NCBI GenBank assembly: GCA_964626705.1
Contig: CAZVGL010000001.1
Coordinates: 4,441-68,440 of the forward strand
Source: an uncultured Candidatus Saccharibacteria bacterium
GTDB lineage: Bacteria; Patescibacteriota; Minisyncoccia; Phycocordibacterales; UBA2163
Direction of reading: 5' to 3'
Length of the DNA stretch: 64,000 bases
Positions 13,024-64,000 of this stretch are shown here, piece by piece. Each line of letters begins with the position of its first letter. Position 1 is the first letter of the stretch. The position numbers and the translations under genes are program-made. The notes below the pieces were generated by a model, which saw only the letters and a program-made list of their open reading frames with translations, made no database searches and was not told the DNA's origin.

Positions 13024-13467
13024 CTATTCGCACATATTTACTAAATCCCCTGAAGTAAACTCAACACCAGCAATCTTTACTTCATCCAGATTAATGACCG
13101 CATAATCACCATCTATTGTGGCTCCATTACTAACCATCGCAGACCTGCTTATTTCAGTAGTATCGCCGTATACTTTGACCCTTGCTTTAACAACAAACTT
13201 CATAAGTTCTGCATTAAGCGCTATTTTTGCAACCATTATTCCAAATTTTTCGCTACCATTATTTAATGCTGTAAATTGTGCAACTTTTGTACGAAGCAAT
13301 ATTTTACCATCATCACTTGATACAAATTCATAATTAAGGACGTATTCGTTTCTTACTCCAGGAACCGTATAAGCCAAAAGTCGCTTTTCTGCAAATGAAT
13401 CAGCAGAGAAAGAAGCGGTAACAACAAATAGCAACATAGCAATAACGACAAGATTTCGGATTTTCAT
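13024..13467 (-). CDS. secreted hypothetical protein, duplicate copy 1
   Basis: 147 aa, MKIRNLVVIAMLLFVVTASFSADSFAEKRL... with a signal peptide. An AGGAG ribosome-binding site precedes it (gaaaggagaccgaaaATG). Confidence 0.6.
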   Translation of the reverse strand: MKIRNLVVIAMLLFVVTASFSADSFAEKRLLAYTVPGVRNEYVLNYEFVSSDDGKILLRTKVAQFTALNNGSEKFGIMVAKIALNAELMKFVVKARVKVYGDTTEISRSAMVSNGATIDGDYAVINLDEVKIAGVEFTSGDLVNMCE

Positions 13468-13545
13468 TTTCGGTCTCCTTTCAAGAGATGAAAATTAAAA
13501 AGATAATATTTAATGTACAAAACAATACACTTGTATCGTACTTAT

Positions 13546-13574
13546 ATATTAGCATACTTATATATGTTTGTCAA
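13546..13574 (-). promoter_or_regulatory. sigma70-like promoter TTGACA-N17-TAATAT (minus strand)
   Basis: Equivalent copies lie at 12884-12912 (for the 12380 gene) and 14208-14236 (for copy 2). Each leader also carries the motif TCTAGCTTAGA just upstream of the -35 box, although that motif is absent from the diverged third leader. Confidence 0.5.
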
Positions 13575-13685
13575 GGGTTAATTTTACCCTTACTCTAAGC
13601 TAGATTTGGATGCAAAAAAAAGGCCCGGCATATAAATATAACATGCTCGGACCCCGTCTTTCTTGAAACTGCGAACTTACTTTAA

Positions 13686-14129
13686 CTATTCGCACATATT
13701 TACTAAATCCCCTGAAGTAAACTCAACACCAGCAATCTTTACTTCATCCAGATTAATGACCGCATAATCACCATCTATTGTGGCTCCATTACTAACCATC
13801 GCAGACCTGCTTATTTCAGTAGTATCGCCGTATACTTTGACCCTTGCTTTAACAACAAACTTCATAAGTTCTGCATTAAGCGCTATTTTTGCAACCATTA
13901 TTCCAAATTTTTCGCTACCATTATTTAATGCTGTAAATTGTGCAACTTTTGTACGAAGCAATATTTTACCATCATCACTTGATACAAATTCATAATTAAG
14001 GACGTATTCGTTTCTTACTCCAGGAACCGTATAAGCCAAAAGTCGCTTTTCTGCAAATGAATCAGCAGAGAAAGAAGCGGTAACAACAAATAGCAACATA
14101 GCAATAACGACAAGATTTCGGATTTTCAT
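13686..14129 (-). CDS. secreted hypothetical protein, duplicate copy 2 (100% identical)
   Basis: Identical 147-aa product; part of the tandem duplication. Confidence 0.6.
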   Translation of the reverse strand: MKIRNLVVIAMLLFVVTASFSADSFAEKRLLAYTVPGVRNEYVLNYEFVSSDDGKILLRTKVAQFTALNNGSEKFGIMVAKIALNAELMKFVVKARVKVYGDTTEISRSAMVSNGATIDGDYAVINLDEVKIAGVEFTSGDLVNMCE

Positions 14130-14240
14130 TTTCGGTCCCCTTTCAAGAGATGAAAATTAAAAAAGTAATATGTAATGTACAAAACAATACACTTGTATCG
14201 TGCTTATATATTAGCATATTTAGATGCGTTTGTCAAGTAC

Positions 14241-16412: not shown

Positions 16413-16475
16413 CTCTCCTCAAGGTCGCACCTATGAAGAAGGAGTTACGTATCTTCTTCATCGAGGAAAGACCTT
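16413..16475. repeat. dispersed palindromic intergenic repeat, copy R1
   Basis: ctcctcaaggtcgcacc...cgaggaaagacctt with an inner hairpin atgaagaag/cttcttcat. Confidence 0.75.
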
Positions 16476-16587: not shown

Positions 16588-18255
16588 ATGGTCACTTTTG
16601 ATGAAACAAAAGTAGAGAAGAAGATTGCCCAACTCCACAGGAAAGAGGAGGAGGAATTAGCAGATATTCTATCAAACAAATATGGTTTGCAGTATATTGA
16701 CCTTTCTGGTGTTCCGATAAACACAGAAGCTCTTCAGCTCATCACAGAAGAAGTCTCTAAAGAAGCTGAAATGGCTATTTTTAAAAAAGTTGGCAAGAAG
16801 ATCTCCGTTGCCGTACGTTCACCAAACAATATAAAAACAAAAGAAGTGGTAAAAGAGCTTGAAGAAAAAAACTATCTTCCCACACTCTTCATGGCTTCTT
16901 CAAACAGTATTAACCGTGCTATTAAAAGATATGCTGACATCTCCTTTGCTGTTGAAACTAAAGCAGGGATGCTGGACATATCTGGAGAAGATATAAAAAA
17001 GATATTAACTTCACTAAACAGTGTTTCTGATATTAAAAACCTCATTGACGAAACATTGAAAATAAAAAAGGCTCACAGAATATCAAGAATACTTGAAGTT
17101 ATTATTGCTGGAGGTCTTGCAAAAAATGCATCTGACGTACATATAGAGCCAGAAGAAAATATAGTGCGTTTAAGATATCGTCTCGACGGTGTACTTATAA
17201 ACATTACAGATATTGATATAGAAACATATGACTTACTTTTATCAAGAATAAAACTTATATCCGGACTAAAGCTAAACCTAAAGAACACAGCACAAGACGG
17301 AAGGTTTAGTGTACAGATCGACGAAGATGATGTGGAAATAAGAACATCCATGCTTCCAGATGCATATGGTGAATCTATAGTTATGCGTATCCTAAACCCA
17401 AAGACGATATCTTTGTCGATGGAAGACTTGGGTATAGAAAAAAGGTTGTTTGATATCTTAGAAAGAGAAATATCTAAACCAAATGGCATGATACTAACAA
17501 CAGGACCAACTGGTTCTGGTAAAACAACCACACTATATGCATTCCTAAGAAGGATACAGACTCCCGAGAAAAAAATAATAACCATAGAAGACCCTATCGA
17601 GTACCATCTTCCAGGGATAGTGCAAACACAAGTAGACGATACAAATTATACATTTGGAAACGGCCTACGCTCAACTCTACGACAAGACCCTGACATCATA
17701 ATGGTGGGTGAGATACGAGATGAAGACGTAGCCTCAACTGCCATAAACGCATCCCTAACTGGTCATCTTGTATTCTCAACACTACACACAAACAATGCCG
17801 CTGGCTCATTCCCTCGCCTTATAGATCTTGGTATTAATCCTAAAGTTATAAGCTCTTCTATAAACGTAGTGCTAGCACAACGACTTGTAAGAAAGCTTTG
17901 TGAATCATGTAAAAAACAAATAGAAATAAGTGGCGACAAAAAGAAACAAATAGACAGGACTCTTGAAACTATTATTAATAAAGAAAATATTCAAGAGAAT
18001 ACTTCCATTATTTGGGAGGCCGGAGGATGTGACAAATGTAATAACACTGGATACAAAGGTAGGATCGGAGTTTTCGAAGCAGTTGTAATGGATGAAAAAG
18101 TAGAAGAGCTTGTAAAAGGTAGTGCGAGTGAAAGAGAGATATCTGAAGCTGCGATAAGCCAAGGAGTGCTTAGTATGCAACAAGACGGAGTACTGAAAGT
18201 CCTAAGAGGTGTCACGTCACTTGATGAGCTGGCGAGGGTGATAGAGCTGACCTAA
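16588..18255 (+). CDS. pilB: type IV pilus / type II secretion ATPase (PilB/GspE family)
   Basis: Walker A GPTGSGKTTTLYA, Asp box, His box and a C-terminal CxxC...CxxC motif; 555 aa. Confidence 0.9.
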   Translation: MVTFDETKVEKKIAQLHRKEEEELADILSNKYGLQYIDLSGVPINTEALQLITEEVSKEAEMAIFKKVGKKISVAVRSPNNIKTKEVVKELEEKNYLPTLFMASSNSINRAIKRYADISFAVETKAGMLDISGEDIKKILTSLNSVSDIKNLIDETLKIKKAHRISRILEVIIAGGLAKNASDVHIEPEENIVRLRYRLDGVLINITDIDIETYDLLLSRIKLISGLKLNLKNTAQDGRFSVQIDEDDVEIRTSMLPDAYGESIVMRILNPKTISLSMEDLGIEKRLFDILEREISKPNGMILTTGPTGSGKTTTLYAFLRRIQTPEKKIITIEDPIEYHLPGIVQTQVDDTNYTFGNGLRSTLRQDPDIIMVGEIRDEDVASTAINASLTGHLVFSTLHTNNAAGSFPRLIDLGINPKVISSSINVVLAQRLVRKLCESCKKQIEISGDKKKQIDRTLETIINKENIQENTSIIWEAGGCDKCNNTGYKGRIGVFEAVVMDEKVEELVKGSASEREISEAAISQGVLSMQQDGVLKVLRGVTSLDELARVIELT

Positions 18256-21384: not shown

Positions 21385-21439
21385 CGCTCCTCAAGGTCGC
21401 ACCTCTCCCGTCGCAAGCTCCTCCTCGAGGAACGACCTT
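21385..21439. repeat. dispersed palindromic intergenic repeat, copy R2
   Basis: cgctcctcaaggtcgcacctctcccgtcgcaagctcctcctcgaggaacgacctt. Confidence 0.75.
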
Positions 21440-25560: not shown

Positions 25561-25626
25561 AAGGTCGTTCCTCGAGGAGGAGTGCAGCGAAGCGGAATGA
25601 CGGGAGAGGTGTGACCTTGAGGAGTG
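25561..25626. repeat. dispersed palindromic intergenic repeat, copy R3 (opposite orientation)
   Basis: aaggtcgttcctcgaggaggagtgcagcgaagcggaatgacgggagaggtgtgaccttgaggag. Confidence 0.75.
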
Positions 25627-27641: not shown

Positions 27642-28745
27642 TTACTTATTCATCGGCATGACTAAATAAAAGAAGCTATTATCCCCCACCCCTCTTACAA
27701 TAACAGGTTTACTTAACCCTGCGAATGATAGCGATACACTATCTTGGTTTATGGACTGGAAGCAATCTGATATGTATTTGTGGTTAAAATTTATATTAAG
27801 AGCATCGCCTGTTATAGCAGAGTCTACTGCGTCTGTAACCTCCCCTACGTTTTCATTTCTAGAGCTTACTGTGAACGACTTTTCTTCTTGATTAATAGAA
27901 AAACTAACCTGATTAAACTTATCTGAGAAAACATTGGTGTTTTTAAGCGTATTTATAATATCCTGCTTTAAAACTATCACTTCTGTAGTATGACTTTTAG
28001 GAACTATTTGTTTATAGTCAGGAAATGAGCCATTTATAAGCCTTGAGGTTAGATAAATCTTGTCAGAAACAAAAGAAATCTGATTATTACTGATATTTAT
28101 CTGTATATCACCACCAATATACTCTAAAACCCTTATAATCTCTGCTATATTTGAAAGTGGGATCAAAATAGGCTCAAAATCCTCTATTTTATCCTTAATT
28201 ATCAATGTTTTTTCTGCAAGTCTAAATGAATCCGTGGCTACAAATATAAGTTTTCCGTCATTATGGTAGATATAAACACTTGAAAGCTCTTGTTTTATAG
28301 ACGAAACAGAAGCACTAAACCATACTGATTTTAAGCCGTTTACTAAGTCTTTAGCCTTAATATGTATAGGATTATCTGATTTTACCTGAGGTAATGTAGG
28401 AAAATCATCATTTGGGACTGTATTTACAAGAGCATTAGTGCTTTTTGTGGATACTGTTAGGTTATTAGACACAACTTCCAAAACAATCTTATCAGAGCCA
28501 TAAATGGTTGAAATAAGACCATGTAAGACCTGTCCAGACACTGCGACTATCCCCTCTTTTTCCACTTTACATGCAACCTCTATTTCTATACCCAAGTCCA
28601 AGTTTGTAGACCGTACTGTAAACTTATTATCTTTTGCTATAAGTAGTAAATTATTTAAAACAGGAAGCGTTAAGTTCTTACCGCTTATCTTTTCAGCTAC
28701 TCCAATACTTTCCACCAAATTTTCTTTTATACATTCTATTTTCAT
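27642..28745 (-). CDS. dnaN: DNA polymerase III beta subunit (sliding clamp)
   Basis: 367 aa, MKIECIKENLVESIGVAEKISGKNLTLPVLNNLLL..., with a three-domain beta-clamp layout. Confidence 0.9.
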   Translation of the reverse strand: MKIECIKENLVESIGVAEKISGKNLTLPVLNNLLLIAKDNKFTVRSTNLDLGIEIEVACKVEKEGIVAVSGQVLHGLISTIYGSDKIVLEVVSNNLTVSTKSTNALVNTVPNDDFPTLPQVKSDNPIHIKAKDLVNGLKSVWFSASVSSIKQELSSVYIYHNDGKLIFVATDSFRLAEKTLIIKDKIEDFEPILIPLSNIAEIIRVLEYIGGDIQINISNNQISFVSDKIYLTSRLINGSFPDYKQIVPKSHTTEVIVLKQDIINTLKNTNVFSDKFNQVSFSINQEEKSFTVSSRNENVGEVTDAVDSAITGDALNINFNHKYISDCFQSINQDSVSLSFAGLSKPVIVRGVGDNSFFYLVMPMNK

Positions 28746-29011: not shown

Positions 29012-30388
29012 CTAACTTAGCATCATTCTTATCTGCTCCACCTCTTTTATAAGTAGGCTATCAACTTTCAGATCGTTTTTTATCTTTTCACATGAGTGAA
29101 TAACTGTAGTATGGTCTCGACCACCAAGCTTCTGACCTATAGTAGGGTATGAAACATTAAAATCTTCTCTCAGTATGTACATAATAAGTTGCCTTGGCTT
29201 CACAACTTCTTTAACACGTGTTTTTTTGTAAATAATATCTTCTTCAAGGTTATAAAAGTCTGCAACTTGTTTAATAACATCCTTTACAGAAACAGATTTC
29301 TTAGGTTTTACATTATTTTTTATAAGATTCTTCACATCACTTAAAGACAAGACTTTGTCTTTAAGTTGTGACTGACAGATGATGGAGTTTAGTATTCCTT
29401 CAAGCTCGCGTATGTTTCCATGAACGTTTGAAGCAAGGTAGTTTGTAACTTCATCGTCTATTATCAGCTTACTTTGTTGAGCTTTCGATTTTATAATAGC
29501 GATGCGAGATTCACTATCAGGAGACGGTATGTCTATTATCATACCTGAAGAAAACCTAGACTTTAAGCGGTCTTCTAGGTTTGGTATGAAGTTTGGGTGC
29601 TTGTCAGATGAAAATATAATCTGTTTATTGTTGTCATAAAGTGCATTAAAAAGATGGAATAGCTCTTCACGAGTTTTGTCCATTGTAGAGAGGAACTGGA
29701 TGTCATCTAGTATAAGCACATCGTATTTTCTATACTTTTCTTTAAAGAGTGTGTTGATCTTATTACTACGAAGAGCGCTTACGTAGTCCATAGCGAACTT
29801 TTCTGACGTAGTGTAAAACACTTTTGTGTCAGGGTTTCTTTTTTTAAGCTGATTCCCTATTGATTGGATAAGGTGTGTCTTACCGTGCCCAGTTCCACCA
29901 TAAATAAAAAGTGGATTGTAGACTATTCCCGGCTTTTCTACTACGGCTTGTGACGCAGCATGTGCAAGTTCGTTAAATGAACCTACGACAAATGTATCAA
30001 ATATGTATCTTGGGTTTAGATTGTCTTCTTTATTTATATAAAAATCATTCAAAGGTAGTTCTCTGTTTACACTTTGTTTTTCTTTTACGTCATCCCCCTT
30101 TTTTTCATCTTTTTTAACTATATATTCAAGTCCTCGTATACTTGGGACAAAATTTCTTAATATTTTTAGTATTGTTTTATGATATTTGTCAAAAAGCCAA
30201 CCTCTCGCGAACTCACTTTCTACACTTAAGTAGACTACATTGTCCTCTATTTTTATTATGTGTGTGTTTTTAAACCAAGTACTGAAATTTGCTTTAGATA
30301 TCTCAAGCTCTACATCAACGAGAGTGTTTTCCCAAAGTTCTTTTACATTAACTTCTTCTATTACATTATCGTTTATAGTTTCATTCAT
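29012..30388 (-). CDS. dnaA: chromosomal replication initiator DnaA
   Basis: AAA+ Walker A GGTGHGKTHL and the C-terminal DNA-binding domain (ILREDFNVSYPTIGQKLGGRDHTTVIH). Confidence 0.95.
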   Translation of the reverse strand: MNETINDNVIEEVNVKELWENTLVDVELEISKANFSTWFKNTHIIKIEDNVVYLSVESEFARGWLFDKYHKTILKILRNFVPSIRGLEYIVKKDEKKGDDVKEKQSVNRELPLNDFYINKEDNLNPRYIFDTFVVGSFNELAHAASQAVVEKPGIVYNPLFIYGGTGHGKTHLIQSIGNQLKKRNPDTKVFYTTSEKFAMDYVSALRSNKINTLFKEKYRKYDVLILDDIQFLSTMDKTREELFHLFNALYDNNKQIIFSSDKHPNFIPNLEDRLKSRFSSGMIIDIPSPDSESRIAIIKSKAQQSKLIIDDEVTNYLASNVHGNIRELEGILNSIICQSQLKDKVLSLSDVKNLIKNNVKPKKSVSVKDVIKQVADFYNLEEDIIYKKTRVKEVVKPRQLIMYILREDFNVSYPTIGQKLGGRDHTTVIHSCEKIKNDLKVDSLLIKEVEQIRMMLS

Positions 30389-33465: not shown

Positions 33466-33530
33466 CCTTCGCTCCTCAAGGTCTCACCTTCGCTTGAATG
33501 AAGTGGAGCGGAGGTGAGTCCTTGTGGAGC
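33466..33530. repeat. dispersed palindromic intergenic repeat, copy R5 (variant)
   Basis: ccttcgctcctcaaggtctcaccttcgcttgaatgaagtggagcggaggtgagtccttgtggag. Confidence 0.65.
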
Positions 33531-42672: not shown

Positions 42673-42761
42673 TTTTTTTGTTAGCTCTGCTTCGTAGTCT
42701 TTTTCTGCATAAAATCAAATTTTCGCTTTGTAGCCGCTCACACTTGTGAGGGATGCAGACA

Positions 42762-42890
42762 AAGGTCTTTCTTCGGCGAAACGAAGTGGAGCGGAGGAGA
42801 GTCCTTGTGTCAAATTCCGTATTTACTCCACCAAGGTCTCACCTTTCCCGTCGCTGTCACTCCTCCTCAAGGAAAGACCTTTTTCCGCGA
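42762..42890. repeat. composite copy (two adjacent units) of the dispersed palindromic repeat (R6)
   Basis: aaggtctttcttcggcgaaacgaagtggagcggaggagagtccttgtg plus ccaaggtctcacctttcccgtcgctgtcactcctcctcaaggaaagacctt. Confidence 0.7.
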
Positions 42891-42932
42891 ATACTTGCAA
42901 AAAGTGTAGTTTTCTGCTATTATATACAGGTT

Positions 42933-43199
42933 ATGCTTACGAAGAAAAAGAAAGAAAAAACAATAAAAGAGACGCAAGTTCATGATAAAGACACAGGATC
43001 TCCTGAAGTGCAGGTTTCTATCCTTACAAAACGGATCACTGAACTTACAAAACACCTCAAAAAAAACAACAAAGACAAGCACCCACGCCGAGGGCTTTTA
43101 GGTATGGTTGCTGCTCGTAGGACACATCTAAAGTATTTAGAGAAAAAGGATAAAAAGCGATACAGTGCTGTTATCAAAAAACTTGGTTTGAAGAAATAG
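42933..43199 (+). CDS. rpsO: 30S ribosomal protein S15
   Basis: [63 protein letters not shown]... The track ORF (42753) is a spurious upstream extension across the repeat. Confidence 0.9.
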
Positions 43200-43267: not shown

Positions 43268-43327
43268 TTCGCTCCTTAAGGTCTCACCTCTCTCTACGAG
43301 GCGAGGAAAGACCTTTTCCTGCGAAAC
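43268..43327. repeat. dispersed palindromic intergenic repeat, copy R7
   Basis: ttcgctccttaaggtctcacctctctctacgaggcgaggaaagacctt. Confidence 0.7.
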
Positions 43328-43931: not shown

Positions 43932-45326
43932 ATGGATGAAAAAAATATAAACTCAGAAGAATCTAAAGTTCAATATCAGACACCAGAAGATAATGCACCT
44001 GAGAATCTACCAGGTGTTGAGGTTACTAATGTTGATGAAACAACACAGCTTATCTCTCCGCAGGCTCCTACACCAACACCACCTACGTCCGAGCCAAAAA
44101 TAGAGGCAGAGATAAAAACAGAAACTCCTTCAGATAAAAAAGCTCCAAACTTTTATGAACTATACGAAGATAAAAATGCTTTAGACGCAAAACTTCAAGA
44201 GGATCTACAGAAAGAGATAAATAGTGAAGTAGAAGAGGCCTTTAAGCCAGAAGTAGATCTCGAATCAGATAAAGAGGGCATAGTTACACCACAAAAAGAT
44301 CTCGAAGAAGATGTATATAAAATAGAAGAAAAACCAGAGCCATCTGTAAGTGAGATAAAACCACAAGAAATAAAACCTCTTCCAGATGAAGATAAACAGC
44401 AGAGTAAGGTAGAAGAAACCAAGCTAAAGTCATTGCGTACATATAAAGGAGACCTTGAGAAAGTTATGGGTACAAAATCTGGGTCTTTGGTTGGTATTGC
44501 ATCTGCAGAAAGCAAGAGGCGTTATAGTGGTAAAAAAGCTGCATCGACACCTTATGGTAAAGCAAAAAAGTCTAAAAAAGGATTTGGAAAAAAAGTTGGT
44601 ATCATTATTTTAATAACAATCCTTGTTGTCTTGGGCATAGGGTCAATGTTTTATTTTTATGGAAAAAGTAATCCAGGTATAGTAGAGTCTGGTTTTAAAA
44701 TACAATCAATTATATTTGCAGACGACAATTCAGAATTCAATATAACAGATTTATCAAGAAGGCAGATCTTAAACGAATTAGCTTCGGCCAAAGTTAGTAC
44801 ACAGCTATCTATAGGACGTATTAATAATGTTGTTATAACAAAATCTTTTCTAAATGAGATAGGTGAAGAAAAGAAAACCTTAGCTGGTACGAAGGATTTT
44901 TTAAATGCAATCGACGCACAAGTACCCACGTCGTTTTTGCGCTCTCTTCAAACAAGCTTTATGGTAGGTGTCCACGTGTTTGATGGGAATCAGCCGTTTA
45001 TCATACTCAATACAAGTTTTTACGAGAATGCTTTTGTAGGGATGCTCGAATGGGAGAGGTCTATAAAAGAAGATCTGTCTCCATTTTTTGCAGAAAAAGA
45101 GATTGCTGTAAACACACTTGCACAAGTAGCTACAACAACAGAAATAAAAGTACTTACATTTAATGATTTGGTCTTAAAAAATAAAGACACTAGGGTTTTG
45201 AAAAATAAAAATGGAGATATTGTGCTTATCTATTCATTTATAGATAAGAATACTATCGTTATAACGACAAACGAACACACATTTAGTGAAGTTCTTACAA
45301 GGTATTCTTCTAGATCTGTTCGGTAA
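43932..45326 (+). CDS. hypothetical single-pass membrane protein with an acidic, Pro/Thr-rich N-terminal region
   Basis: 464 aa. TM segment VGIIILITILVVLGIGSMFYFY in the middle. Confidence 0.5.
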   Translation: MDEKNINSEESKVQYQTPEDNAPENLPGVEVTNVDETTQLISPQAPTPTPPTSEPKIEAEIKTETPSDKKAPNFYELYEDKNALDAKLQEDLQKEINSEVEEAFKPEVDLESDKEGIVTPQKDLEEDVYKIEEKPEPSVSEIKPQEIKPLPDEDKQQSKVEETKLKSLRTYKGDLEKVMGTKSGSLVGIASAESKRRYSGKKAASTPYGKAKKSKKGFGKKVGIIILITILVVLGIGSMFYFYGKSNPGIVESGFKIQSIIFADDNSEFNITDLSRRQILNELASAKVSTQLSIGRINNVVITKSFLNEIGEEKKTLAGTKDFLNAIDAQVPTSFLRSLQTSFMVGVHVFDGNQPFIILNTSFYENAFVGMLEWERSIKEDLSPFFAEKEIAVNTLAQVATTTEIKVLTFNDLVLKNKDTRVLKNKNGDIVLIYSFIDKNTIVITTNEHTFSEVLTRYSSRSVR

Positions 45327-45838: not shown

Positions 45839-47386
45839 ATGAGTACAAAAAACTTTGCAAAAGTTTATAGTGCACAGACGACACTTTTGTCTGCGCGGAT
45901 TATAGATATAGAAGTAGATCTTTCAAAAGGGTTACATTCTTTTGCAGTTGTGGGACTCCCTGATAAAGCTGTGGAAGAATCTCGAGACAGGGTTTCTGCT
46001 GCTATAAAAAACTCAGATTTCAAATCGCCGAAAGCTAAGAATCAAAAAGTGGTTATCTCACTTGCTCCAGCTGATCTTAAAAAAGAAGGACCTGTGTTTG
46101 ATTTAGGGATAGCTCTCGCATATCTACTTTCTTGTGATGATATTAAATTTGATCCAGAGGGGAAACTTTTCTTGGGAGAGTTATCTCTCGATGGATATTT
46201 AAGAAAAATAAAAGGTGTGCTGCCGATAGTACTTGAGGCTAAAAAACAAGGTTTCGAAGAAGTTTTTTTGCCAAAAGAAAATGCCGAAGAAGGCGCACTG
46301 ATAGATGGTATTAAGATATATGGTGTTAATAGTCTAAAAGAAGTAATAGAGCACTTAGATGAAAAACAGATAGAAAACAAACTTATAGAACAAGAAAAGA
46401 AAACGGAAGTTAGGGTAGAAAAAGCAGACCATCTTATTGATTTTGGAGATATAAAAGGGCAGGAGAGAGCAAAACGCGGATTAGAAATAGCTGCAGCCGG
46501 TGGGCATAATATAGCCATGTACGGACCACCAGGGACAGGAAAGACAATGCTCGCAAAGGCTTTTTGTCATATACTTCCACCGCTTTGTTTTGACGACGCA
46601 CTTGAGACTACATCTATACATTCTATTGCAGGTACTTTAAATGAGACGCTTATGACTAAGCCTCCATTTAGGACTCCTCACCATACGTCATCACACGTGG
46701 CGATAGTTGGAGGTGGTGCTATACCAAAGCCAGGGGAGATAACACTAGCACATAGGGGCGTACTTTTCTTAGATGAATTCCCAGAGTTTGAACGAAGGGT
46801 TGTAGAAGCGCTTCGTCAGCCACTTGAAGACAGAGTGATAAGTATCTCACGTGCGAAAGGCACAGCACTTTTCCCTGCGAGTTTTATATTAGTAGCAGCG
46901 ATGAATCCGTGCCCATGTGGTAACCACGGAAGTCAGAGAAGGTGCATATGTTCAGCTGTAGCACTTGAGAGATATAAAAGAAAAATATCAGGTCCTATAA
47001 TAGATCGTATAGATATGTGGATCGAAGTTGCAAATATTTCTCACGAAAAGCTTTCAGAAAAGGGAAGTGGGTATAAAGAAAGTGAAGTGAAAAGAAAAAA
47101 CATCTCTCGTGCAAGAGAAATACAGAAACAGAGATTTGATGGAGTAAAAAGAAATATAAAAACAAATAGCGAGATGAATAGTAAAGACTTGTCACAGCTT
47201 GTTGAATTAAAAGAAGATGCACAAAAGAGTTTGAATACTGCTGCACACAATATGGACTTATCTCCACGTGCATATCACAGAGTCATCAAGCTCGCTCGTA
47301 CTATCGCAGACTTAGATGAAAGCGAAGATGTAAAAGAAGGTCATGTATTAGAAGCACTTCAGTATAGACCAAAGCAGGTAGAATAA
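45839..47386 (+). CDS. comM: YifB/ComM family Mg-chelatase-like AAA+ ATPase
   Basis: Lon-like N-terminal domain, Walker A YGPPGTGKTML, and a C-terminal ChlI domain; 515 aa. Confidence 0.85.
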   Translation: MSTKNFAKVYSAQTTLLSARIIDIEVDLSKGLHSFAVVGLPDKAVEESRDRVSAAIKNSDFKSPKAKNQKVVISLAPADLKKEGPVFDLGIALAYLLSCDDIKFDPEGKLFLGELSLDGYLRKIKGVLPIVLEAKKQGFEEVFLPKENAEEGALIDGIKIYGVNSLKEVIEHLDEKQIENKLIEQEKKTEVRVEKADHLIDFGDIKGQERAKRGLEIAAAGGHNIAMYGPPGTGKTMLAKAFCHILPPLCFDDALETTSIHSIAGTLNETLMTKPPFRTPHHTSSHVAIVGGGAIPKPGEITLAHRGVLFLDEFPEFERRVVEALRQPLEDRVISISRAKGTALFPASFILVAAMNPCPCGNHGSQRRCICSAVALERYKRKISGPIIDRIDMWIEVANISHEKLSEKGSGYKESEVKRKNISRAREIQKQRFDGVKRNIKTNSEMNSKDLSQLVELKEDAQKSLNTAAHNMDLSPRAYHRVIKLARTIADLDESEDVKEGHVLEALQYRPKQVE

Positions 47387-53571: not shown

Positions 53572-53652
53572 ACCTCTCCTCAATGTCCCACCTACGAAGG
53601 AGGAGTTTCGTATCTCCTTCGTCGTCTATCTGCGAGGAACAACCTTTTCCCT
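53572..53652. repeat. dispersed palindromic intergenic repeat, copy R8 (diverged)
   Basis: cctctcctcaatgtcccacctacgaaggaggagtttcgtatctccttcgtcgtctatctgcgaggaacaacctt. Confidence 0.6.
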
Positions 53653-56502: not shown

Positions 56503-57120
56503 TTAAAAACTTGTTCCAACCATCTGGATTACATGAGGGTGTCCCAAAGTATCAAGCTTTTTTCCAAAACCAAACTTGCTTGCAAAACCAGCTATTCCTA
56601 ATGCTTGTCCAATTTGCGCAGAAGACACCTTTAATATGGTGTCACCTATTGCTTGTTGAAATATAATATTAGTACCAAACGTAGAGTATAAAGATATTGC
56701 AGTACCCGCAATTATTAATGCTGTTCCAAAACCTGGTGAGAAAAGTCCGCTTTTTCCCTTACATGTTACAGTACCAGTGTCCGCATTACCAAGTGTCCAT
56801 GTACCATTTCGAAATACACCGTGTTTGAATACACGACTACTATCTGTCAGGAGAAATTGTCCGCCTCTTGGACCTCCTATGGTTAACATCATTCCAGCTG
56901 GTGTCTTGCATGGCTGTATGCTTATAATCCTACCTCCAAATGGCTTAATGCCAGCATATGAATAAGAATATAAAGATGATATCTGTGCAGATACTGAAAC
57001 TGGATAAACTGTTGTTATGGAAAACAGAACAATTAATAAGATTAAGATTATTTTTTTTGAATAAAACATATACTGTAACGATAACATAAAAATTAAAACT
57101 TTGATTGTTATTATCCACAT
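56503..57120 (-). CDS. secreted hypothetical protein
   Basis: Hydrophobic N-terminus and a Gly-rich body. The start is probably an internal Met (MFYSKKIILILL...). Confidence 0.5.
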   Translation of the reverse strand: MWIITIKVLIFMLSLQYMFYSKKIILILLIVLFSITTVYPVSVSAQISSLYSYSYAGIKPFGGRIISIQPCKTPAGMMLTIGGPRGGQFLLTDSSRVFKHGVFRNGTWTLGNADTGTVTCKGKSGLFSPGFGTALIIAGTAISLYSTFGTNIIFQQAIGDTILKVSSAQIGQALGIAGFASKFGFGKKLDTLGHPHVIQMVGTSF

Positions 57121-57190: not shown

Positions 57191-58195
57191 TTGAATTTAT
57201 TATCGAAGAAAAAGCTTAAGTTTGTAATTTTTGGATTATTTCTAGTAGTAATAATCGGTTTTTTGGCGTCACAGCCTAATCATCTGAAATATGGCGGTAA
57301 TGAAATATTGTTAGCTGGTACTTTAGATAGAGGTGCACAGATAAAGATATTAGAAAATATAAATAAGAAAGATACCGATAATGATGGACTTAAAGATTGG
57401 GAAGAAGAGCTGTGGGGAACTGACCTCAGAAATCCTGATACTGATGGTGATGGGACAAAAGATAGTGATGAAATACAAATAGGACGAGACCCTCTTAATG
57501 GAGGACTTAATGATGAAGTTAATAATAAACCTTTTGCACAGAATAAAGAAAATAAAAGTGAAAGCACATTTAAAAGTCTTACTGATACAGATATTTTTGC
57601 ACAGAATTTATTTACAGAATACTTATCCTTACGAAGATCAAACGAATCGCTTAATGATATAGATAAAAATTTTTTAGTTAATTCTGCTGTAGCCGATGCT
57701 TTAAATACTGAATCTAACAAACAGTATGAAATCGCTAATTTGAATATTACAAATGACAATAGTGTAACAGCGTTTAAGAGATATGGAAATGATTTTGCTC
57801 AGATAATACAGTTTTATTCAAATAATTTGCCACAAGATGAATTAACTGTTTTTGAAAGGATATTAAGGACAGAAGATAAAAAAGACATTGTATATCTTAG
57901 TGAATCTGCAGGTGTATACCGCTCAGCAGTAGATGAGTTAAAATATATTAGTGTACCAAGTGATCTTACTTTTGTTCATTTGGATATTTTAAATAGTTAT
58001 ATGGCTATCAGCGGTGCATTGGAGGATATGAGTTTGGTATTAGATGATCCTATCCGCGGATTAAGCGGGTTTAGTATTTATACCAATACAAAGGATTTAC
58101 AAGTTGGACTTTTCAAAAAGATTATAGATTCTCTCATAGAAAATAGGGTTGTTTTTAGTGTAAGTGAAGTAGGATATATGTGGCATACGATTTAA
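57191..58195 (+). CDS. membrane-anchored protein with thrombospondin-type-3-like Ca-binding repeats
   Basis: Signal-anchor helix, then DTDNDGLKDWEE and DTDGDGTKDSDE (DxDxDG) motifs. Confidence 0.5.
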   Translation: MNLLSKKKLKFVIFGLFLVVIIGFLASQPNHLKYGGNEILLAGTLDRGAQIKILENINKKDTDNDGLKDWEEELWGTDLRNPDTDGDGTKDSDEIQIGRDPLNGGLNDEVNNKPFAQNKENKSESTFKSLTDTDIFAQNLFTEYLSLRRSNESLNDIDKNFLVNSAVADALNTESNKQYEIANLNITNDNSVTAFKRYGNDFAQIIQFYSNNLPQDELTVFERILRTEDKKDIVYLSESAGVYRSAVDELKYISVPSDLTFVHLDILNSYMAISGALEDMSLVLDDPIRGLSGFSIYTNTKDLQVGLFKKIIDSLIENRVVFSVSEVGYMWHTI

Positions 58196-58205
58196 TTTTT
58201 AAAAG

Positions 58206-59969
58206 ATGAGTAAAAATATTTTTAAAAAAATAATATCCAGTATTCTAACAATCGCAATTTTTGCAATAAGTATTTTTGGTACTTTTAATATTAGTATTAC
58301 AGTTGCCGCAACAAAACCACCAAGGACTCAAGGATTGCCAGGATCAGGGACAAGTGGTAATCGTAATGAAATCATGACAGGGGCTGAAGGGGTAAATGCT
58401 GTTGGGGTAAATACAGCAACTGTGGTAGTTGATCAAGATGTTGTAGGTATGTTGTCACCAGTTGATAAATTAATTGATCAAGATGTTGTAGGTATGTTGT
58501 CACCAGTTGATAAATTAATTGATCAAGATGCTATAGGTATGTTGTCAGCAAATGATGCACAGATAAGTCAAGTAAAAAACAAAACAGCAGGGATTTTAAG
58601 TTCAAACCCTTTTGGAAACAGTATGGTTCCTACAGATGATGTAAAAGATAATTACAAAGAAAGGGTACAAGATTCTATTTGGTCACTTATGGCAAAAAGA
58701 GCTATAAGGATGATCACTACAAGTACTGTAAACTGGATAAATAATGGTTTTCAGGGTGGTCCAGCATATGTAACAGATCTTAACGGTTTTCTTCTTGATG
58801 TTGCAGATGATCAGACTAGTATCTTCATAGAGCGTCTAGGGCTTACAGATCTATGTAGTCCTTGGAAGTTAGACATACGAATTGCATTAGCAATGAGACA
58901 GGCAGCACCGTTTGACAGAGAAATCGCATGTACCCTCTCTGACATTGTGGCAAATATGGATGATTTTATAAATGGAGATTTCTCTCAAGGTGGATGGGCA
59001 GGGTGGTTTGAACTTACTACAAAACCACAAAATAACCCTTATGGACTTTATCTTATGACAGCATCTGAGCTTGACCAAAGGATAGCGGGTACACAACAGC
59101 GACAGACACAAATCCTTGATTGGGGTGATGGATTTCTTTCGTATGAAGAATGTGAAGACTTACCCGAAGGGTTTGGGGGACCACCGCGTTGTGAAATAGT
59201 AACACCGGGGACTGTTATTGAAAATCAATTAGACCATGTTTTGGGTACTGGTGTAAGGCAGTTAGAGCTTGCGGATGAATTTAATGAAGTAATAAATGCT
59301 TTAATGCAACAGCTTGTGGTACAAGTATTTACTGGAGTAGATGGATTGAGGGGTGTAAGTAGAAGTTATGGAGGTAACCCATCGTATACAAACCGTCTTT
59401 CAGCTACTGAAGATAATACTACGATAGGAAATGTCATAGCAAGTTCAGAGCTTGAGTTTGGAAGGGTGTTAAATGAAGAGTTAGTTTACCTGACAGCCAA
59501 AGACGGCTCACTTAAGAGTATTGAGGCGGCAGAAAACAGACTTTCTAGCTTGGTCGCATGTTACGACAATAAACTCGCGGATATCAGTTTGAATTTAACT
59601 ATTAGTGAAAAAACAATAGCTCTTGAGAGGAGAAACAGTGCCTCTTCTACTATAGATACACTCATCACACCGCGTAAGAATATTCTTATCACAGAAATAG
59701 ATTTTTCAAGTAGGGTTATATTGAAATTAGATTCATTGTTAACTAATATGCAAAACGCAACAAATCCAATTCAGCTTCAAGTACCTACAAGTGAGTTAGA
59801 AAGTATGCGCAGACAGGATATTCTAAGAGGTCCATATATATTTTCTGCAGAGCAGGAAAGGGTGGGATTGTTGAGCGAGATGAATGCACTTAACCAAGAT
59901 ACTGAGAATAAAATTACAGAATGTCAGGTATTCCCGCTGCTACCGCAGGGGCAACAGCAGAATCCATAA
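58206..59969 (+). CDS. large secreted hypothetical protein with internal 15-aa tandem repeats
   Basis: N-terminal TM/signal helix. DQDVVGMLSPVDKLI repeated. Q-rich C-terminus. Confidence 0.5.
   Translation: MSKNIFKKIISSILTIAIFAISIFGTFNISITVAATKPPRTQGLPGSGTSGNRNEIMTGAEGVNAVGVNTATVVVDQDVVGMLSPVDKLIDQDVVGMLSPVDKLIDQDAIGMLSANDAQISQVKNKTAGILSSNPFGNSMVPTDDVKDNYKERVQDSIWSLMAKRAIRMITTSTVNWINNGFQGGPAYVTDLNGFLLDVADDQTSIFIERLGLTDLCSPWKLDIRIALAMRQAAPFDREIACTLSDIVANMDDFINGDFSQGGWAGWFELTTKPQNNPYGLYLMTASELDQRIAGTQQRQTQILDWGDGFLSYEECEDLPEGFGGPPRCEIVTPGTVIENQLDHVLGTGVRQLELADEFNEVINALMQQLVVQVFTGVDGLRGVSRSYGGNPSYTNRLSATEDNTTIGNVIASSELEFGRVLNEELVYLTAKDGSLKSIEAAENRLSSLVACYDNKLADISLNLTISEKTIALERRNSASSTIDTLITPRKNILITEIDFSSRVILKLDSLLTNMQNATNPIQLQVPTSELESMRRQDILRGPYIFSAEQERVGLLSEMNALNQDTENKITECQVFPLLPQGQQQNP
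58431..58556 (+). repeat. 45-bp in-frame tandem repeat, about 2.8 copies
   Basis: gatcaagatgttgtaggtatgttgtcaccagttgataaattaatt appears twice, followed by a diverged partial copy. Confidence 0.85.
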
Positions 59970-60007
59970 AATCTGAATAAAAACAAAATGAAAAAACAAA
60001 AAACAAA

Positions 60008-60538
60008 ATGAAAAAAGCTAAAACAAAAACAAAAATAATCCCAAGTATAGAAATAGAGAGTAAGATTCTATTTATTAGAAACAAAAAAGTAATGCTTGAT
60101 AAAGATTTGGCGGTGCTTTATGGTGTAAAGCCTATTCGTCTAAGAGAGCAGGTAAAAAGAAATAAAGAACGGTTTCCAGAAGATTTTATGTTTCAGATTA
60201 CTAAAGATGAAGCAACTCTCTTGGTATCGCAAAATGCGATACCATCAAAAAAGAGTTTGGGAGGACATTTGCCCTATGTATTTACAGAACATGGTGCGTT
60301 AATGGCAGCAAATGTTATAAAAAGTAAAGCAGCCATAGAGGCAAGTATCGCAATAGTGAGAACCTTTGTAAAGTTAAGAGAAATGATGATGTCATACAAA
60401 GAATTACAAAAGAAGATAGAAGATATGGAGAGAAAATATAGTAAGCATGACAAACATTTTCAGATTATCTTTCAGACAATACAGAAAATGTTGAATCCGA
60501 CAGAACAACCAAAAACCAAAATTGGTTTTGGAACATAG
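60008..60538 (+). CDS. ORF6N-domain protein (phage/mobile-element-associated DNA-binding)
   Basis: KKVMLDKDLAVLYGVKPIRLREQVKRNKERFPEDFMFQITKDE matches the ORF6N signature. Confidence 0.55.
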   Translation: MKKAKTKTKIIPSIEIESKILFIRNKKVMLDKDLAVLYGVKPIRLREQVKRNKERFPEDFMFQITKDEATLLVSQNAIPSKKSLGGHLPYVFTEHGALMAANVIKSKAAIEASIAIVRTFVKLREMMMSYKELQKKIEDMERKYSKHDKHFQIIFQTIQKMLNPTEQPKTKIGFGT

Positions 60539-60549
60539 TATTTACGAAA

Positions 60550-60605
60550 AAGGTCGTTCCTCATCGTGTAGCGAAGCGGAACAGGGAGGTGCGACCTTGA
60601 GGAGC
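60550..60605. repeat. dispersed palindromic intergenic repeat, copy R9 (same subtype as R3)
   Basis: aaggtcgttcctcatcgtgtagcgaagcggaacagggaggtgcgaccttgaggagc. Confidence 0.75.
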
Positions 60606-60622
60606 AAATACAAAAAACAAAA

Positions 60623-63022
60623 ATGTTAAAACAAAAACTTTTCAAAAAAATAATCCCGACATTGCTCATAATGGCGGTTTTGCTAACCGGATTTTTTGGT
60701 GTTATTGGTGCAAACGTGGCGCATGCGCAAGGTCCGGATGATTTGTTCAAGAAAGCAGATGAAGTAAAAGCAACTGAAGATGGTGCTGCTAAACCCACTA
60801 ATTCTAATAGTTCTGGAAACTTACGTACAGAATTATTTAAAGAAAAAAATGTTAATACTGTTGGTACTAGTAAAAGTTTACCATTTGACTCAGTATCAAC
60901 AGACGACGACATAGTACAAGACGACATAGTACAAGACAGGGCTGGATGTAAGATATTACGTCTCGATCGATGTGTGATTTCTGTATTTGCTATAATTGGA
61001 AACGCGATGCTAAATATTTTCGCACTATTTACTGGTATTGCTGGATATATATTAGATAGAGCTGTTGATTATACGATCGTTGGTATGGGTAAGCATACAA
61101 GAGATATAGGTGCAATAGAGACAGGTTGGAAGGTGTTTAGAGATCTTTCAAATATAGTGATTATATTCGTCTTGCTTGTCATAGGTATTGCTACAATTCT
61201 TCAGCCCTATCAAGGCTTGGAAAATTATGGCGCAAAGGCGCTCCTCGCTAAGCTCATAGTAGTGGCACTTCTTATAAATTTTAGTTTGTTCTTTACGCAA
61301 GTTATTATTGATTCTAGTAATCTCATATCGCTGCAGTTTTATAATAAAATAACAGAAAAAAGTGTTGTTGTAGGAGGAGAGGATATTGTGATAATAGAAA
61401 CTGTAGGGGAAAAGTATATGCAAGCATTTGGGCTTACTACTTTATATGATGGTAAAGAAATTTTTAAACCAGAAAGATTATCAGGAAAAAATACTTTTTT
61501 GGAGATATTCCTGACATCTGTTTTAGGATCAGTTGTATTCTTAGTTTCTGCTTTTGCATTTCTTGCGGGGGCATTTTTACTCATCAGTAGGTTTGTGGTA
61601 CTTATTTTCCTTATGATACTCGCTCCGCTTGCTTTTGTAGGGATGATATTGCCGTCACTTTCGAAACATGCAAGTAAGTGGTGGGGTGCGCTTATGCGTT
61701 ATGCATTTTTTGCGCCAGCATATATGATACTTACTTGGTTTGTTATAGAGGTTATTAACTCCGATTCTTTTGGGTTAAGTATTGGATTAAATGAAACATC
61801 ATCATTTGCATCAGCTATAACGGGTGGTAATATGGCGATCATATTTAACTTTATAATAGTTATTGCTTTTATAATCGCTTCGGTTTTGATATCAAACTAT
61901 TTTGGGATCATTGGTTCAAATGCAGTTATAAAATGGGGACATGCTGCACGTAAGTTCGGACAAGGTGTTGTCGGGCGAAGCACTATTGGTCTTGGAAGCA
62001 AATACGGAGGGAAAGCGTATGACAGAGGTGCTGCCAAATTTGCAGGCTCAAATCTTGGTAAGATATTGCGTAAAATACCTGGCCTCAAGCAGTTAGGTGC
62101 TATAGGTGATCTGACAGCCAGAAATGTTATAAGTGCGGGAGAGGGTGCAAAGTTTGGAAGTGGTGCATCATATGCTGATATGGACAAAAAATATGAAGCA
62201 AGAAGGAAGGAGATTGCTGAAGTACAGGAAAACCTAAAAGAAAAAGATGCAATTGATGTGATGAGCGACGAGGCTAAGTTTGAAAAGATGTCACCAAAAG
62301 AACAACGAGAGTTTGCGGCAATAGTCGGTAAGATGAGTATTAAAGAGCTTGAGAAGCGTGGTATTAGAGAAAATCTAGCATATCCTGAGATTGCAAAAAA
62401 TCTGTCTACAGATATGTACAGTGCTCTGGACAAGAGTGAGGTGTTTACAAAGCAGCAAGTTGAAGCTATAAAAGACGCAAGATTTGAAGATATTATGACT
62501 CTGTTGAACAGCAAAGATCCTATAAAGCAAGAGAAAGGTAAGAAGATGTTACGGGCGCTTGGCGACAAAGAAATGGAGATATTTGGAAGCAGGCTATATG
62601 AGGCAGGTATGATCGAGATGATTTCACAGTCGCAAGTTGAAGGTATTAAGAAGAGTGCAAAGATAAATAGTAGCCTGAAAAAGCGTGTTCTAGATACAAA
62701 AGAAATGTACTTCAAGGCATTGGTCAGAATGGAAGATGGTAGTCTCGAGAAAGAATTAGATGGTATGAAAATACCTCAAATAGCAAAACTTGATCCAGAT
62801 GTTCTTACTTCAAAAGAAGGTATAAATTTTGTATCAAGAAATGTTTTGGCAGAAATTATAAAAGAATCAACAGCTGAGGACAAGAAAAAGGTAATCGACG
62901 GTGTTGTTAAAGCTTATGACGAAGCCACAGCTCCTGGATCTTCAACTAAAATTTCAAAAGACCTAGAAGATGCATACGAAGCTCTTACTGATAAGACTTT
63001 ACCAATGGCGTTATTTACTTAA
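60623..63022 (+). CDS. large polytopic membrane protein, TrbL/VirB6-like (conjugation/T4SS inner-membrane component candidate)
   Basis: Signal peptide, at least 7 predicted TM helices in the first 450 aa, and a long soluble C-terminal domain. It lies adjacent to the PrgI-like gene. The short tandem repeat DDIVQDDIVQD falls at 60904-60933. Confidence 0.4.
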   Translation: MLKQKLFKKIIPTLLIMAVLLTGFFGVIGANVAHAQGPDDLFKKADEVKATEDGAAKPTNSNSSGNLRTELFKEKNVNTVGTSKSLPFDSVSTDDDIVQDDIVQDRAGCKILRLDRCVISVFAIIGNAMLNIFALFTGIAGYILDRAVDYTIVGMGKHTRDIGAIETGWKVFRDLSNIVIIFVLLVIGIATILQPYQGLENYGAKALLAKLIVVALLINFSLFFTQVIIDSSNLISLQFYNKITEKSVVVGGEDIVIIETVGEKYMQAFGLTTLYDGKEIFKPERLSGKNTFLEIFLTSVLGSVVFLVSAFAFLAGAFLLISRFVVLIFLMILAPLAFVGMILPSLSKHASKWWGALMRYAFFAPAYMILTWFVIEVINSDSFGLSIGLNETSSFASAITGGNMAIIFNFIIVIAFIIASVLISNYFGIIGSNAVIKWGHAARKFGQGVVGRSTIGLGSKYGGKAYDRGAAKFAGSNLGKILRKIPGLKQLGAIGDLTARNVISAGEGAKFGSGASYADMDKKYEARRKEIAEVQENLKEKDAIDVMSDEAKFEKMSPKEQREFAAIVGKMSIKELEKRGIRENLAYPEIAKNLSTDMYSALDKSEVFTKQQVEAIKDARFEDIMTLLNSKDPIKQEKGKKMLRALGDKEMEIFGSRLYEAGMIEMISQSQVEGIKKSAKINSSLKKRVLDTKEMYFKALVRMEDGSLEKELDGMKIPQIAKLDPDVLTSKEGINFVSRNVLAEIIKESTAEDKKKVIDGVVKAYDEATAPGSSTKISKDLEDAYEALTDKTLPMALFT

Positions 63023-63029
63023 TAAAAAC

Positions 63030-63608
63030 ATGAGATATACAAAAGAACAAATAAATGAGAGATTCCAAATGCTACCGTCTTCCGTACAAGACGTGGTGTT
63101 GTCTGCAGAAGTTGCAGACGCGATAAAGACTATTGCGGACAAAAATGATCTGTACATAGATACAGCTGGGCTTTTAAACGAGGAGATCACTTACGTCATG
63201 GTCGGTGCAGAAAAGTCTGTTAACTTTATAAGTAATCTAAAGACAAAGGTACATTTGCCAGAAGATAAGGTTAACGCTGTTGCGGGAGATGTAAACGATA
63301 AAATATTTTTACCAATCAGAGAGGCTTTGAAAAATGCAGCAAACAAACCAGCTCAAGATATAGGGCCGGAAACACCAGCCCCGAGCGACTTACAAGAAAA
63401 GGCGATAAGTTTAGAGAATAAGGATAGTCGCCCGCCGTTAACCGAGTCAGAAGAGATAAGAGAGCAGGTCAAAAGAAGTCAAGAAGTGAAACAGACCCCT
63501 GCGCCACCTGCGAACCTTCCTATTGGTGAAGAAAATAAGATAAAAGAAAAGCATATACAGAAGCAAAGTCCATATGCCAAAGACCCGTATCGTGAACCAC
63601 TTAAATAA
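63030..63608 (+). CDS. hypothetical protein (192 aa)
   Basis: Start taken at the internal Met at 63030, because the track ORF (62970) overlaps the upstream gene. Acidic, Pro-rich tail. Confidence 0.4.
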   Translation: MRYTKEQINERFQMLPSSVQDVVLSAEVADAIKTIADKNDLYIDTAGLLNEEITYVMVGAEKSVNFISNLKTKVHLPEDKVNAVAGDVNDKIFLPIREALKNAANKPAQDIGPETPAPSDLQEKAISLENKDSRPPLTESEEIREQVKRSQEVKQTPAPPANLPIGEENKIKEKHIQKQSPYAKDPYREPLK

Positions 63609-63614
63609 AAAAAT

Positions 63615-64000
63615 ATGCGATTTCAAGTACCACAATTCATCGAAGTAGAAGATAAGATTTTCGGGCCACTAACCTTGAGGCAATTTATTTATCTTGCGGG
63701 AGCAGGTGGTGTGGTGTTTGTGCTCTGGAGAGTCTTTCCTATATTTATCGCTGTACTCATCGCCGCTCCTATTATAGTTCTTGCTCTAGCTCTAGCCTTT
63801 TATAAGATAAACAAAAGACCATTTGTGTTTGTTTTGGAATCAGCATTTAAATATATAATTAGTAATAGGTTATATATATGGAAGAGTAAGGATCTAAGGC
63901 AAATAAAGAAAGAGAAAAAGAAAGACCCAGCACTACAAGGATCACAAGTACAAGTACCCAAACTTTCAGGAAGCAAGCTCAAGGATATTGCATGGAGTCT
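63615..64000 (+). CDS. PrgI-family (T4SS) small membrane protein, partial (runs off the window end)
   Basis: MRFQVPQFIEVEDKIFGPLTLRQFIYLAGAGGVVFVLW... matches the PrgI family N-terminus, with two TM helices. The frame is still open at 64000. Confidence 0.45.
   Translation, partial: MRFQVPQFIEVEDKIFGPLTLRQFIYLAGAGGVVFVLWRVFPIFIAVLIAAPIIVLALALAFYKINKRPFVFVLESAFKYIISNRLYIWKSKDLRQIKKEKKKDPALQGSQVQVPKLSGSKLKDIAWS

Follow-up and report, generated by a model that had tools for sequence, protein, structure and literature searches.

A probable chromosomally fixed type IV secretion locus near the replication origin of a Paceibacteria-class genome

Six plus-strand open reading frames (ORFs) at positions 57191-64000 of the 64,000-nt stretch of DNA analysed here (the window) raise the question of whether this site carries a mobile conjugative element or a resident secretion machine of the cell. 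A preliminary description had listed these six ORFs, all of which are present, and had interpreted them as a conjugation module resembling a type IV secretion system (T4SS), of a cluster type considered poorly characterised in the candidate phyla radiation. The T4SS part of this interpretation is essentially correct, and the cluster type has already been described (PMC10633639, PMC12102498, PMC12857230). Very probably, the region makes up the upstream half of an operon that has a fixed place on the chromosome, close to the replication origin of a genome of the class Paceibacteria (Parcubacteria), and that encodes a Patescibacteria-type T4SS. We regard it as a fixed chromosomal T4SS and not as a conjugative element because its gene order is shared in 80 loci, dnaA lies ~27 kb from it, the window ORFs scanned and 10 kb downstream gave no gene for a relaxase, coupling protein or integrase, and its GC content is unremarkable.

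Gene order, flanks and position of the locus

The last of the six ORFs runs off the window, which was extended through the public metagenome contig L001. This contig is a valid extension because only 1 mismatch was found in 11,997 overlapping bases; moreover, an identical copy of the 799-aa protein of the locus is encoded by 16 public metagenome contigs. For the comparison, one genome per GTDB species was scanned, which yielded 80 related loci, and these were searched by tblastn with all locus proteins. The record titles name Campbell-, Nomura-, Kaiser-, Taylor-, Zambryski- and Wolfebacteria, Paceibacterota and similar groups, and many of the remaining loci are titled uncultured Candidatus Saccharibacteria or just Patescibacteria group.

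The order common to the 80 loci is uvrD, ksgA, p334, p587, VirB6-like gene (p799), p192, PrgI, TrsD, VirB4, p174, p341, pilin (p292), p422, (jag) and yidC, where p334 and similar names give the protein length in amino acids. Relatives of p799 were found in all 80 loci, and those of p587, p334, PrgI and TrsD in 73, 67, 66 and 62 loci, respectively, followed by VirB4 (59), p341 (50), p422 (47), the pilin (46), p192 (40) and p174 (31); many of the missed relatives fall on short contigs or are fast-evolving small proteins. The ksgA gene lies directly upstream of p334, and convergent jag and yidC genes lie directly downstream of p422. Among these flanking genes and uvrD, relatives were found for ksgA in 63 loci, for uvrD in 60 and for yidC in 41. 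The site near dnaA and ksgA is therefore a fixed chromosomal one, with the same flanks in 60-63 of the 80 loci. All intergenic gaps within the locus are at most 38 nt, except for an 84-nt gap that holds a hairpin, and the GC content of the locus resembles that of the remainder of the window. A 205-aa ORF on the minus strand (56503-57120) was kept out of the locus because it has relatives in just 4 of the 80 loci. A consensus scan of 56.4-64 kb for promoters and terminators gave sites no commoner than in shuffled sequence, and for this reason no promoter or terminator is claimed.

The dnaA (29012-30388) and dnaN (27642-28745) genes (minus strand) lie at the cumulative GC-skew minimum (~28-30 kb), and the chromosomal replication origin is probably inside the window, ~27 kb from the T4SS locus. 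Relaxases, coupling proteins (T4CPs) and integrases were looked for in the genes of the cluster, in window ORFs of 450 aa or longer and in 10 kb downstream, and none was found. Together with the synteny of the locus and its housekeeping flanks in the 80 loci, this result speaks against the term conjugation module.

Translocon components and proteins without a recognised family

The preliminary description had predicted a VirB4 ATPase just beyond the window end, and such a gene (651 aa) was found ~0.7 kb downstream on L001; the relaxase and coupling protein that it had suggested looking for as well were not found in the 10 kb downstream. VirB4 was matched by NF045971 (conju_CD1110; 379.5 bits vs a cutoff of 325) and by Pfam P-loop_TraG (89 bits), its nucleotide-binding motifs are intact (P-loop ATAGSGKS and Walker B LLVIDE), and its identity to the Paceibacteria-class loci is 64-92%. 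Its matches to the DNA-import ATPases CedB and CedD were weak (34 and 17 bits vs cutoffs of 700 and 600, respectively). Directly upstream of virB4, ~50 nt past the window end, a separate gene encodes a TrsD-like protein of 215 aa, whose position and sequence are kept in 62 of the 80 loci at 51-89% identity. Its matches to NF041427 TrsD (26 bits; cutoff 200), to the VirB4 N-terminal model VirB4_plasma (residues 97-234; 34.6 bits) and to Pfam TraC_F_IV (15.9 bits) are all below the cutoffs, and it has a precomputed match to PF26593 (TraC-like).

Topologies of the locus proteins were derived from hydropathy and positive-inside reasoning, without a dedicated predictor. The ORF that runs off the window (63615-64000, plus strand; 128 of 143 codons inside) had been described as a PrgI-family protein with two transmembrane (TM) segments, and this holds: the part in the window matches PF12666 with 43.8 bits (cutoff 27), the full 143-aa gene on L001 with 43.4 bits, and a single 44-residue hydrophobic hairpin (residues 24-67) forms the two TM segments. 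Relatives of this PrgI (VirB3-like) protein in 66 of the 80 loci share 40-73% identity. Downstream of virB4 on L001 follow p174 (174 aa, a membrane protein with three to four TM segments), p341 (341 aa, secreted), a VirB2-like pilin (p292; 292 aa) and p422 (422 aa, with an N-terminal anchor), and p174, p341 and p422 have no recognised family. The pilin itself barely passes the cutoff of PF18895 (26.7 vs 26.6 bits). Its assignment nevertheless appears robust because 44 of 46 orthologues match PF18895 (T4SS_pilin) and four of them match TrbC/VirB2 as well. The p174 protein was tried as a second pilin and rejected, as it has no similarity to the pilin and its orthologues match no family. Profiles of p341 and p422 gave nothing significant against PDB sequences.

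The p799 gene (60623-63022, plus strand) encodes an extended polytopic membrane protein with a signal peptide, ~7 membrane segments and a C-terminal stretch of 367 hydrophilic, K/R-rich residues. It has 416 homologues, whose named sources are Paceibacteria, Parcubacteria, the Patescibacteria group or just 'bacterium', and many of them carry precomputed TrbL (PF04610) or TrbL_3 (PF19590) matches. When 46 homologues were scanned singly, Pfam TrbL (PF04610) matched 18 (best E-value 6.5e-11), with the best match covering residues 152-351 of homologue P0073 (42.8 bits vs a cutoff of 25.9). Residues ~204-419 of p799 align with this stretch at 36% identity (E 6e-60). Membership of p799 in the VirB6/TrbL superfamily is supported in this way through its homologues and not directly, so the earlier label TrbL/VirB6-like stands for the family, whereas the TrbL model misses the protein itself. 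Additionally, the large extracytoplasmic domain formerly ascribed to p799 has to be given up. Its predicted extracellular part comprises just ~80 residues after the signal peptide, and the hydrophilic bulk is the C-terminal 367 residues, which are most likely cytoplasmic by hydropathy and the positive-inside rule. No relatives of this C-terminal domain were detected outside the p799 family. As far as the extended VirB6 proteins of Alvarez-Martinez and Christie (2009) are characterised where PMC12857230 cites them, p799 is like them in having at least five hydrophobic helices and a large hydrophilic C-terminal domain, but differs in that its homology is visible via family members only. Taken together, the features of a Patescibacteria-type T4SS (VirB6-like protein, PrgI, VirB4 and pilin) appear to be in place, with p799 identified via its homologues.

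The first conserved gene of the locus, p334 (57191-58195, plus strand; 334 aa), encodes a membrane-anchored protein with a C-terminal four-helix-bundle domain. The Ca-binding repeats noted previously in this protein correspond to two calcium-binding TSP3 repeats (Pfam TSP3_bac, 29.2 bits vs a cutoff of 25). The protein was considered as the absent VirB8-like subunit and rejected, since its confident AlphaFold2 (AF2) model is an all-helical four-helix bundle and not an NTF2 fold; no bitopic protein with an extracytoplasmic NTF2-like domain, as in VirB8-like subunits, was found in the locus.

The next gene, p587 (58206-59969, plus strand; 587 aa), encodes a secreted or anchored helical protein without a Pfam, NCBIfam or PHROG match. 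In the related loci, of which 73 have a relative as stated above, its gene always adjoins the VirB6-like gene, at a median distance of 3 nt. Its family profile retrieved 6,389 cluster representatives at E<=1e-3 from 1.84 billion representatives; the 150 matches listed were all close relatives, with no distant annotated relative among them. The AF2 model of p587 has a mean pLDDT of 70, with long C-terminal helices above 90. Neither p334 nor p587 had a specific fold match, and the p587 profile found nothing among PDB sequences. The 15-aa tandem repeats reported earlier for this protein are borne out by a 45-nt tandem repeat (58429-58547, plus strand; 2.6 copies, Tandem Repeats Finder score 224, 97% matches), which encodes the unit [VL][VI]DQD[VA][VI]GMLS... 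in the N-terminal region. In p587 homologues, a VPVxD motif is present once at this position; in the window protein, the 45-nt repeat has triplicated it. The N-terminal motif of two homologues (P0222 and P0246) matches DUF4141, which belongs to proteins whose genes lie between traG (VirB4) and traJ (VirB6) in conjugative transposons of Bacteroides. This match is the sole hint that p587 might be a VirB5-like subunit or a VirB1-like hydrolase. Moreover, fusions to Ig-like, PKD or discoidin surface domains are frequent among p587 homologues.

The third such protein, p192 (63030-63608, plus strand; 192 aa), is soluble, with no membrane segment predicted, no Pfam, NCBIfam or PHROG match and an empty profile search against PDB sequences. 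Its relatives share 21-40% identity in 40 of the 80 loci and always lie between the VirB6-like gene and PrgI. In p192, a P/E/K-rich linker joins a conserved N-terminal domain to a C-terminal DPYRE motif, and an alignment of 31 orthologues (L007-L083), whose overall identity is just 20-40%, has invariant P16, D185, P186, Y187, R188 and E189, which suggests that the DPYRE tail may be a docking peptide. That p334, p587 and p192 are unrecognised core subunits of the Paceibacteria T4SS, with p587 possibly the missing extracellular component (a VirB5-like subunit serving as pilus tip or adhesin, or else a stalk through the wall), is an idea we consider improbable.

By the known roles of T4SS families, VirB6, PrgI and TrsD/VirB4 would form an energised membrane translocon and the VirB2-like pilin an extracellular tube or pilus. 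The p334, p587, p341 and p422 proteins, which all have signal peptides or N-terminal anchors, would be exported or anchored through the Sec pathway and would make up, or be attached to, the portion of the machine that spans the envelope and touches the host. As the locus has no accompanying relaxase or coupling protein, the system most likely does not transfer the bacterium's own DNA. By analogy with the proposal made for the essential T4SS of Southlakia epibionticum, it more likely exchanges macromolecules with a host cell on contact.

ORF6N insertion, dispersed hairpins and other features of the window

One of the six ORFs stands apart from the others. The gene at 60008-60538 (plus strand; 176 aa) encodes an ORF6N-domain protein, as described before: PF10543 matches with 109 bits (cutoff 27.8) over its full 86 positions, the PHROG anti-repressor phrog_4792 matches with 79 bits, and two viral contigs encode relatives with 42-47% identity. 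However, its previous standing as a module member or as cargo of an integrative and conjugative element (ICE) does not agree with the comparison, in which tblastn found no relative in any of the 80 loci. In 69 loci, p587 and the VirB6-like gene are separated by a median of 3 nt and by no more than 233 nt, whereas the distance is 653 nt here.

A direct repeat lies on either side of the insert. Its left copy (60019-60042, plus strand) duplicates the 5' end of the VirB6-like gene, and its right copy (60627-60657, plus strand) lies within the true 5' end of that gene. The repeat pattern TAAAACAAAAAC..AAAAATAATCCC has only these two matches in the window (vs 0 expected), spaced by 608 nt. Because the direct repeat flanks the insert, the start region and first ~12 codons of ORF6N (MKKAKTKTKIIP) repeat the sequence with which the VirB6-like gene starts (MLKQKLFKKIIP). 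The arrangement looks like a target duplication or a gene start rebuilt after insertion. Judged from the sequence, the ORF6N gene is a lineage-specific insertion of 608 nt and not a T4SS component: a gene for a phage-like DNA-binding regulator that entered the VirB6-like gene at its 5' end at a later time. Given the 80-locus comparison, the ORF6N gene is best omitted from models of the T4SS machine.

The insert also carries one copy of a dispersed hairpin, an imperfect palindrome of ~55 nt (AAGGTCGTTCCTC..loop..GAGGTGCGACCTT) with ~10 copies in the window (16421-16475, 21393-21439, 25561-25618, ~27608, 33478-33523, 42762-42806, 42833-42881, 43278-43315, ~53576-53646 and 60547-60604). Its 18-mer core has 8 matches in the window vs 0 expected, and the arm pattern 20 vs ~2 expected. 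The copy at 60547-60604 (plus strand), between the ORF6N and VirB6-like genes, has an RNA fold of -23.6 kcal/mol (z = -3.4), and no T-run comes after it. No Rfam match was found for the repeat. Nearly all copies lie between called ORFs, with two inside a 148-aa ORF (42753-43199), and the hairpin behaves as an intergenic element of the REP (repetitive extragenic palindromic) type. Mobile-element boundaries were considered for these repeats and rejected on account of their number and their intergenic positions window-wide. In particular, two copies do not bracket part of the region, as had been thought, since one copy lies inside it and the nearest other is at ~53576-53646, upstream of uvrD. Beside this latter copy, directly upstream of uvrD, is a RelB/YafQ toxin-antitoxin pair (~52.9-53.6 kb; L001 990-1553).

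Several other features were observed in the window. On the minus strand, a 662-nt unit is present in three tandem copies (12380-14237), two of which share a 300-nt stretch of 100% identity. The units encode paralogous ORFs of 141, 147 and 147 aa beside tsaE, without a Pfam match, in what is a recent duplication or gene conversion of a small protein. The window also encodes, both on the plus strand, an ATPase of type II/IV secretion that resembles PilB (T2SSE, 394 bits; 16588-18255) and a ComM-like protein of the Mg-chelatase family (45839-47386), which suggest type IV pilus and competence functions beside the T4SS. Additionally, a 464-aa ORF (43932-45326, plus strand) has no Pfam match and a faint match to a PHROG excisionase (E 0.0038).

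Alternative explanations and comparison with known systems

A conjugative element, an ICE or the remnant of an integrated plasmid, with the ORF6N gene and the dispersed repeats as its cargo or boundaries, would accommodate the membership of VirB4 in the CD1110 family of conjugative-transposon ATPases; PrgI, TrsD and VirB6 are likewise all typical of Gram-positive conjugation systems, and ORF6N of phages and ICEs. This explanation is nevertheless very improbable, given that the uvrD-ksgA and jag-yidC flanks and the locus order are kept in the 80 loci, that the ORF6N gene is absent from every one of them, that the hairpins are spread between ORFs across the window, that the GC content is not deviant, and that the scan of window ORFs and 10 kb downstream gave no relaxase, coupling protein or integrase. 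Relaxases were found in just 103 Patescibacteria genomes and rarely near virB4 (PMC12102498). Several points weigh against the fixed Patescibacteria-type T4SS that we prefer. The p799 protein has no Pfam match, with TrbL absent even at E<=1, and the TrsD-type scores are all well below the curated cutoffs. Six of the eleven conserved proteins (p334, p587, p192, p174, p341 and p422) have no recognisable family, and their roles are guesses. The placement of VirB4 in the monophyletic Patescibacteria clade would follow from synteny and the taxonomy of its homologues. Furthermore, a relaxase or coupling protein may be encoded elsewhere, as 74 kb of the genome were examined and VirD4 lies far from virB4 in many Patescibacteria (PMC12102498). 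Finally, the substrate, the direction of transport and the contact with a host would all be assigned entirely by analogy.

If the locus is such a fixed T4SS, two views of what it transports deserve mention. It might be an uptake machine that imports host nucleic acids or other macromolecules into a cell unable to make nucleotides, comparable to Helicobacter ComB or archaeal Ced. This functional sub-case, which we entertain only tentatively, agrees with the weak CedB/CedD matches of VirB4, the ComM-like gene and the PilB-like ATPase in the same window, the speculation in PMC12857230 on uptake from the host through the pilus, and a preprint (10.64898/2026.06.21.733656) in which a cultivated member has tubular structures at the parasite-host interface and uses host RNA. 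However, the CedB/CedD scores are far under their cutoffs, nothing in the sequence indicates a direction of transport, and a comEC deletion in Southlakia epibionticum abolished competence and left viability intact, indicating that transformation-type DNA uptake is not the cause of T4SS essentiality. Alternatively, the machine might export effectors or mediate adhesion, with p334 and p587 as adhesins or substrates instead of structural parts. The signal peptides or anchors of p334, p587, p341 and p422, the TSP3 repeats of p334, which are typical of surface proteins, and the surface domains fused to p587 homologues would suit this role, and Wang et al. (PMC10633639) list protein export as one option. 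We likewise entertain it only tentatively, since the signals of these four proteins are of the ordinary Sec type, for which a T4SS is unneeded, and since strict position and co-orientation in the operon fit structural subunits better than variable effectors. Import of host macromolecules and effector export are both kept as candidate functions of the preferred Patescibacteria-type T4SS.

The T4SS of Patescibacteria is thought to be central to the host-dependent life of these ultrasmall bacteria, and it is essential in the one species tested. Specifically, Wang et al. (2023; PMC10633639) used transposon sequencing to show that the saccharibacterium Southlakia epibionticum needs its T4SS cluster in order to grow on its host. 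This cluster (SEML1_0006-0019 in strain ML1) has the order VirB6-like, NTF2-like, large protein, PrgI, TrsD-position gene and VirB4. The locus studied here shares this core order of a VirB6-like gene, intervening gene(s), PrgI, a TrsD-position gene and VirB4, as well as PF18895 pilins and the lack of a recognisable relaxase or coupling protein. However, Southlakia epibionticum belongs to another class (Saccharimonadia), and essentiality was shown for that species only. In addition, it has a six-pilin array, an NTF2-like (VirB8-like) protein, and peptidase and lysozyme genes downstream of virB4, none of which was found here.

Compared with the Gram-positive MPF_FATA systems (Prg of pCF10, Trs of pGO1, the CD1110 type of CTn2 and Con of ICEBs1), the locus has the same CD1110-type VirB4, PrgI and polytopic VirB6-like proteins as well as a putative TrsD-like protein, and outer-membrane core components are absent from both. 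In contrast to those systems, no relaxase, VirD4/TcpA coupling protein, VirB1-like hydrolase or VirB8-like protein was detected here, a VirB2-like pilin that they lack is present, and the locus is chromosomally fixed instead of mobile.

The closest description is the Patescibacteria survey of Quinonero-Coronel et al. (2025; PMC12102498), which defined a distinct VirB4 clade related to MPF_FATA, found TrsD, PrgI/VirB3 and VirB6 homologues to be abundant, VirB2-like pilins near virB4 and relaxases almost absent, and placed the Paceibacteria locus near dnaA, dnaN and ksgA. A FEMS review of 2025 (PMC12857230) lists the Patescibacteria systems as a new T4SS subgroup. The locus of the window agrees with the surveyed system in its MPF_FATA-related VirB4, the putative TrsD-like gene upstream of it, PrgI, VirB6 and a VirB2-like pilin, with ksgA and origin genes close by and no relaxase or coupling protein nearby. 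It differs in the ORF6N insertion, which is absent from all 80 related loci, and in having a single pilin gene and no pilin array. The survey does not name the strictly conserved p334, p587 and p192 as components; otherwise nothing fundamental differs. The locus is therefore a typical example of a T4SS already described in 2023-2025 and involves no new principle. What goes beyond the cited literature is that p334, p587 and p192 are strictly conserved, how large the p587 family is, that p192 has a DPYRE motif and that the ORF6N insertion comes with a target duplication. The 80-locus comparison provides a parts list for the Paceibacteria T4SS, consisting of eleven conserved genes, six of them without a recognised family, in which the p587 family and p192 with its DPYRE tail offer definite starting points for structural or genetic studies.

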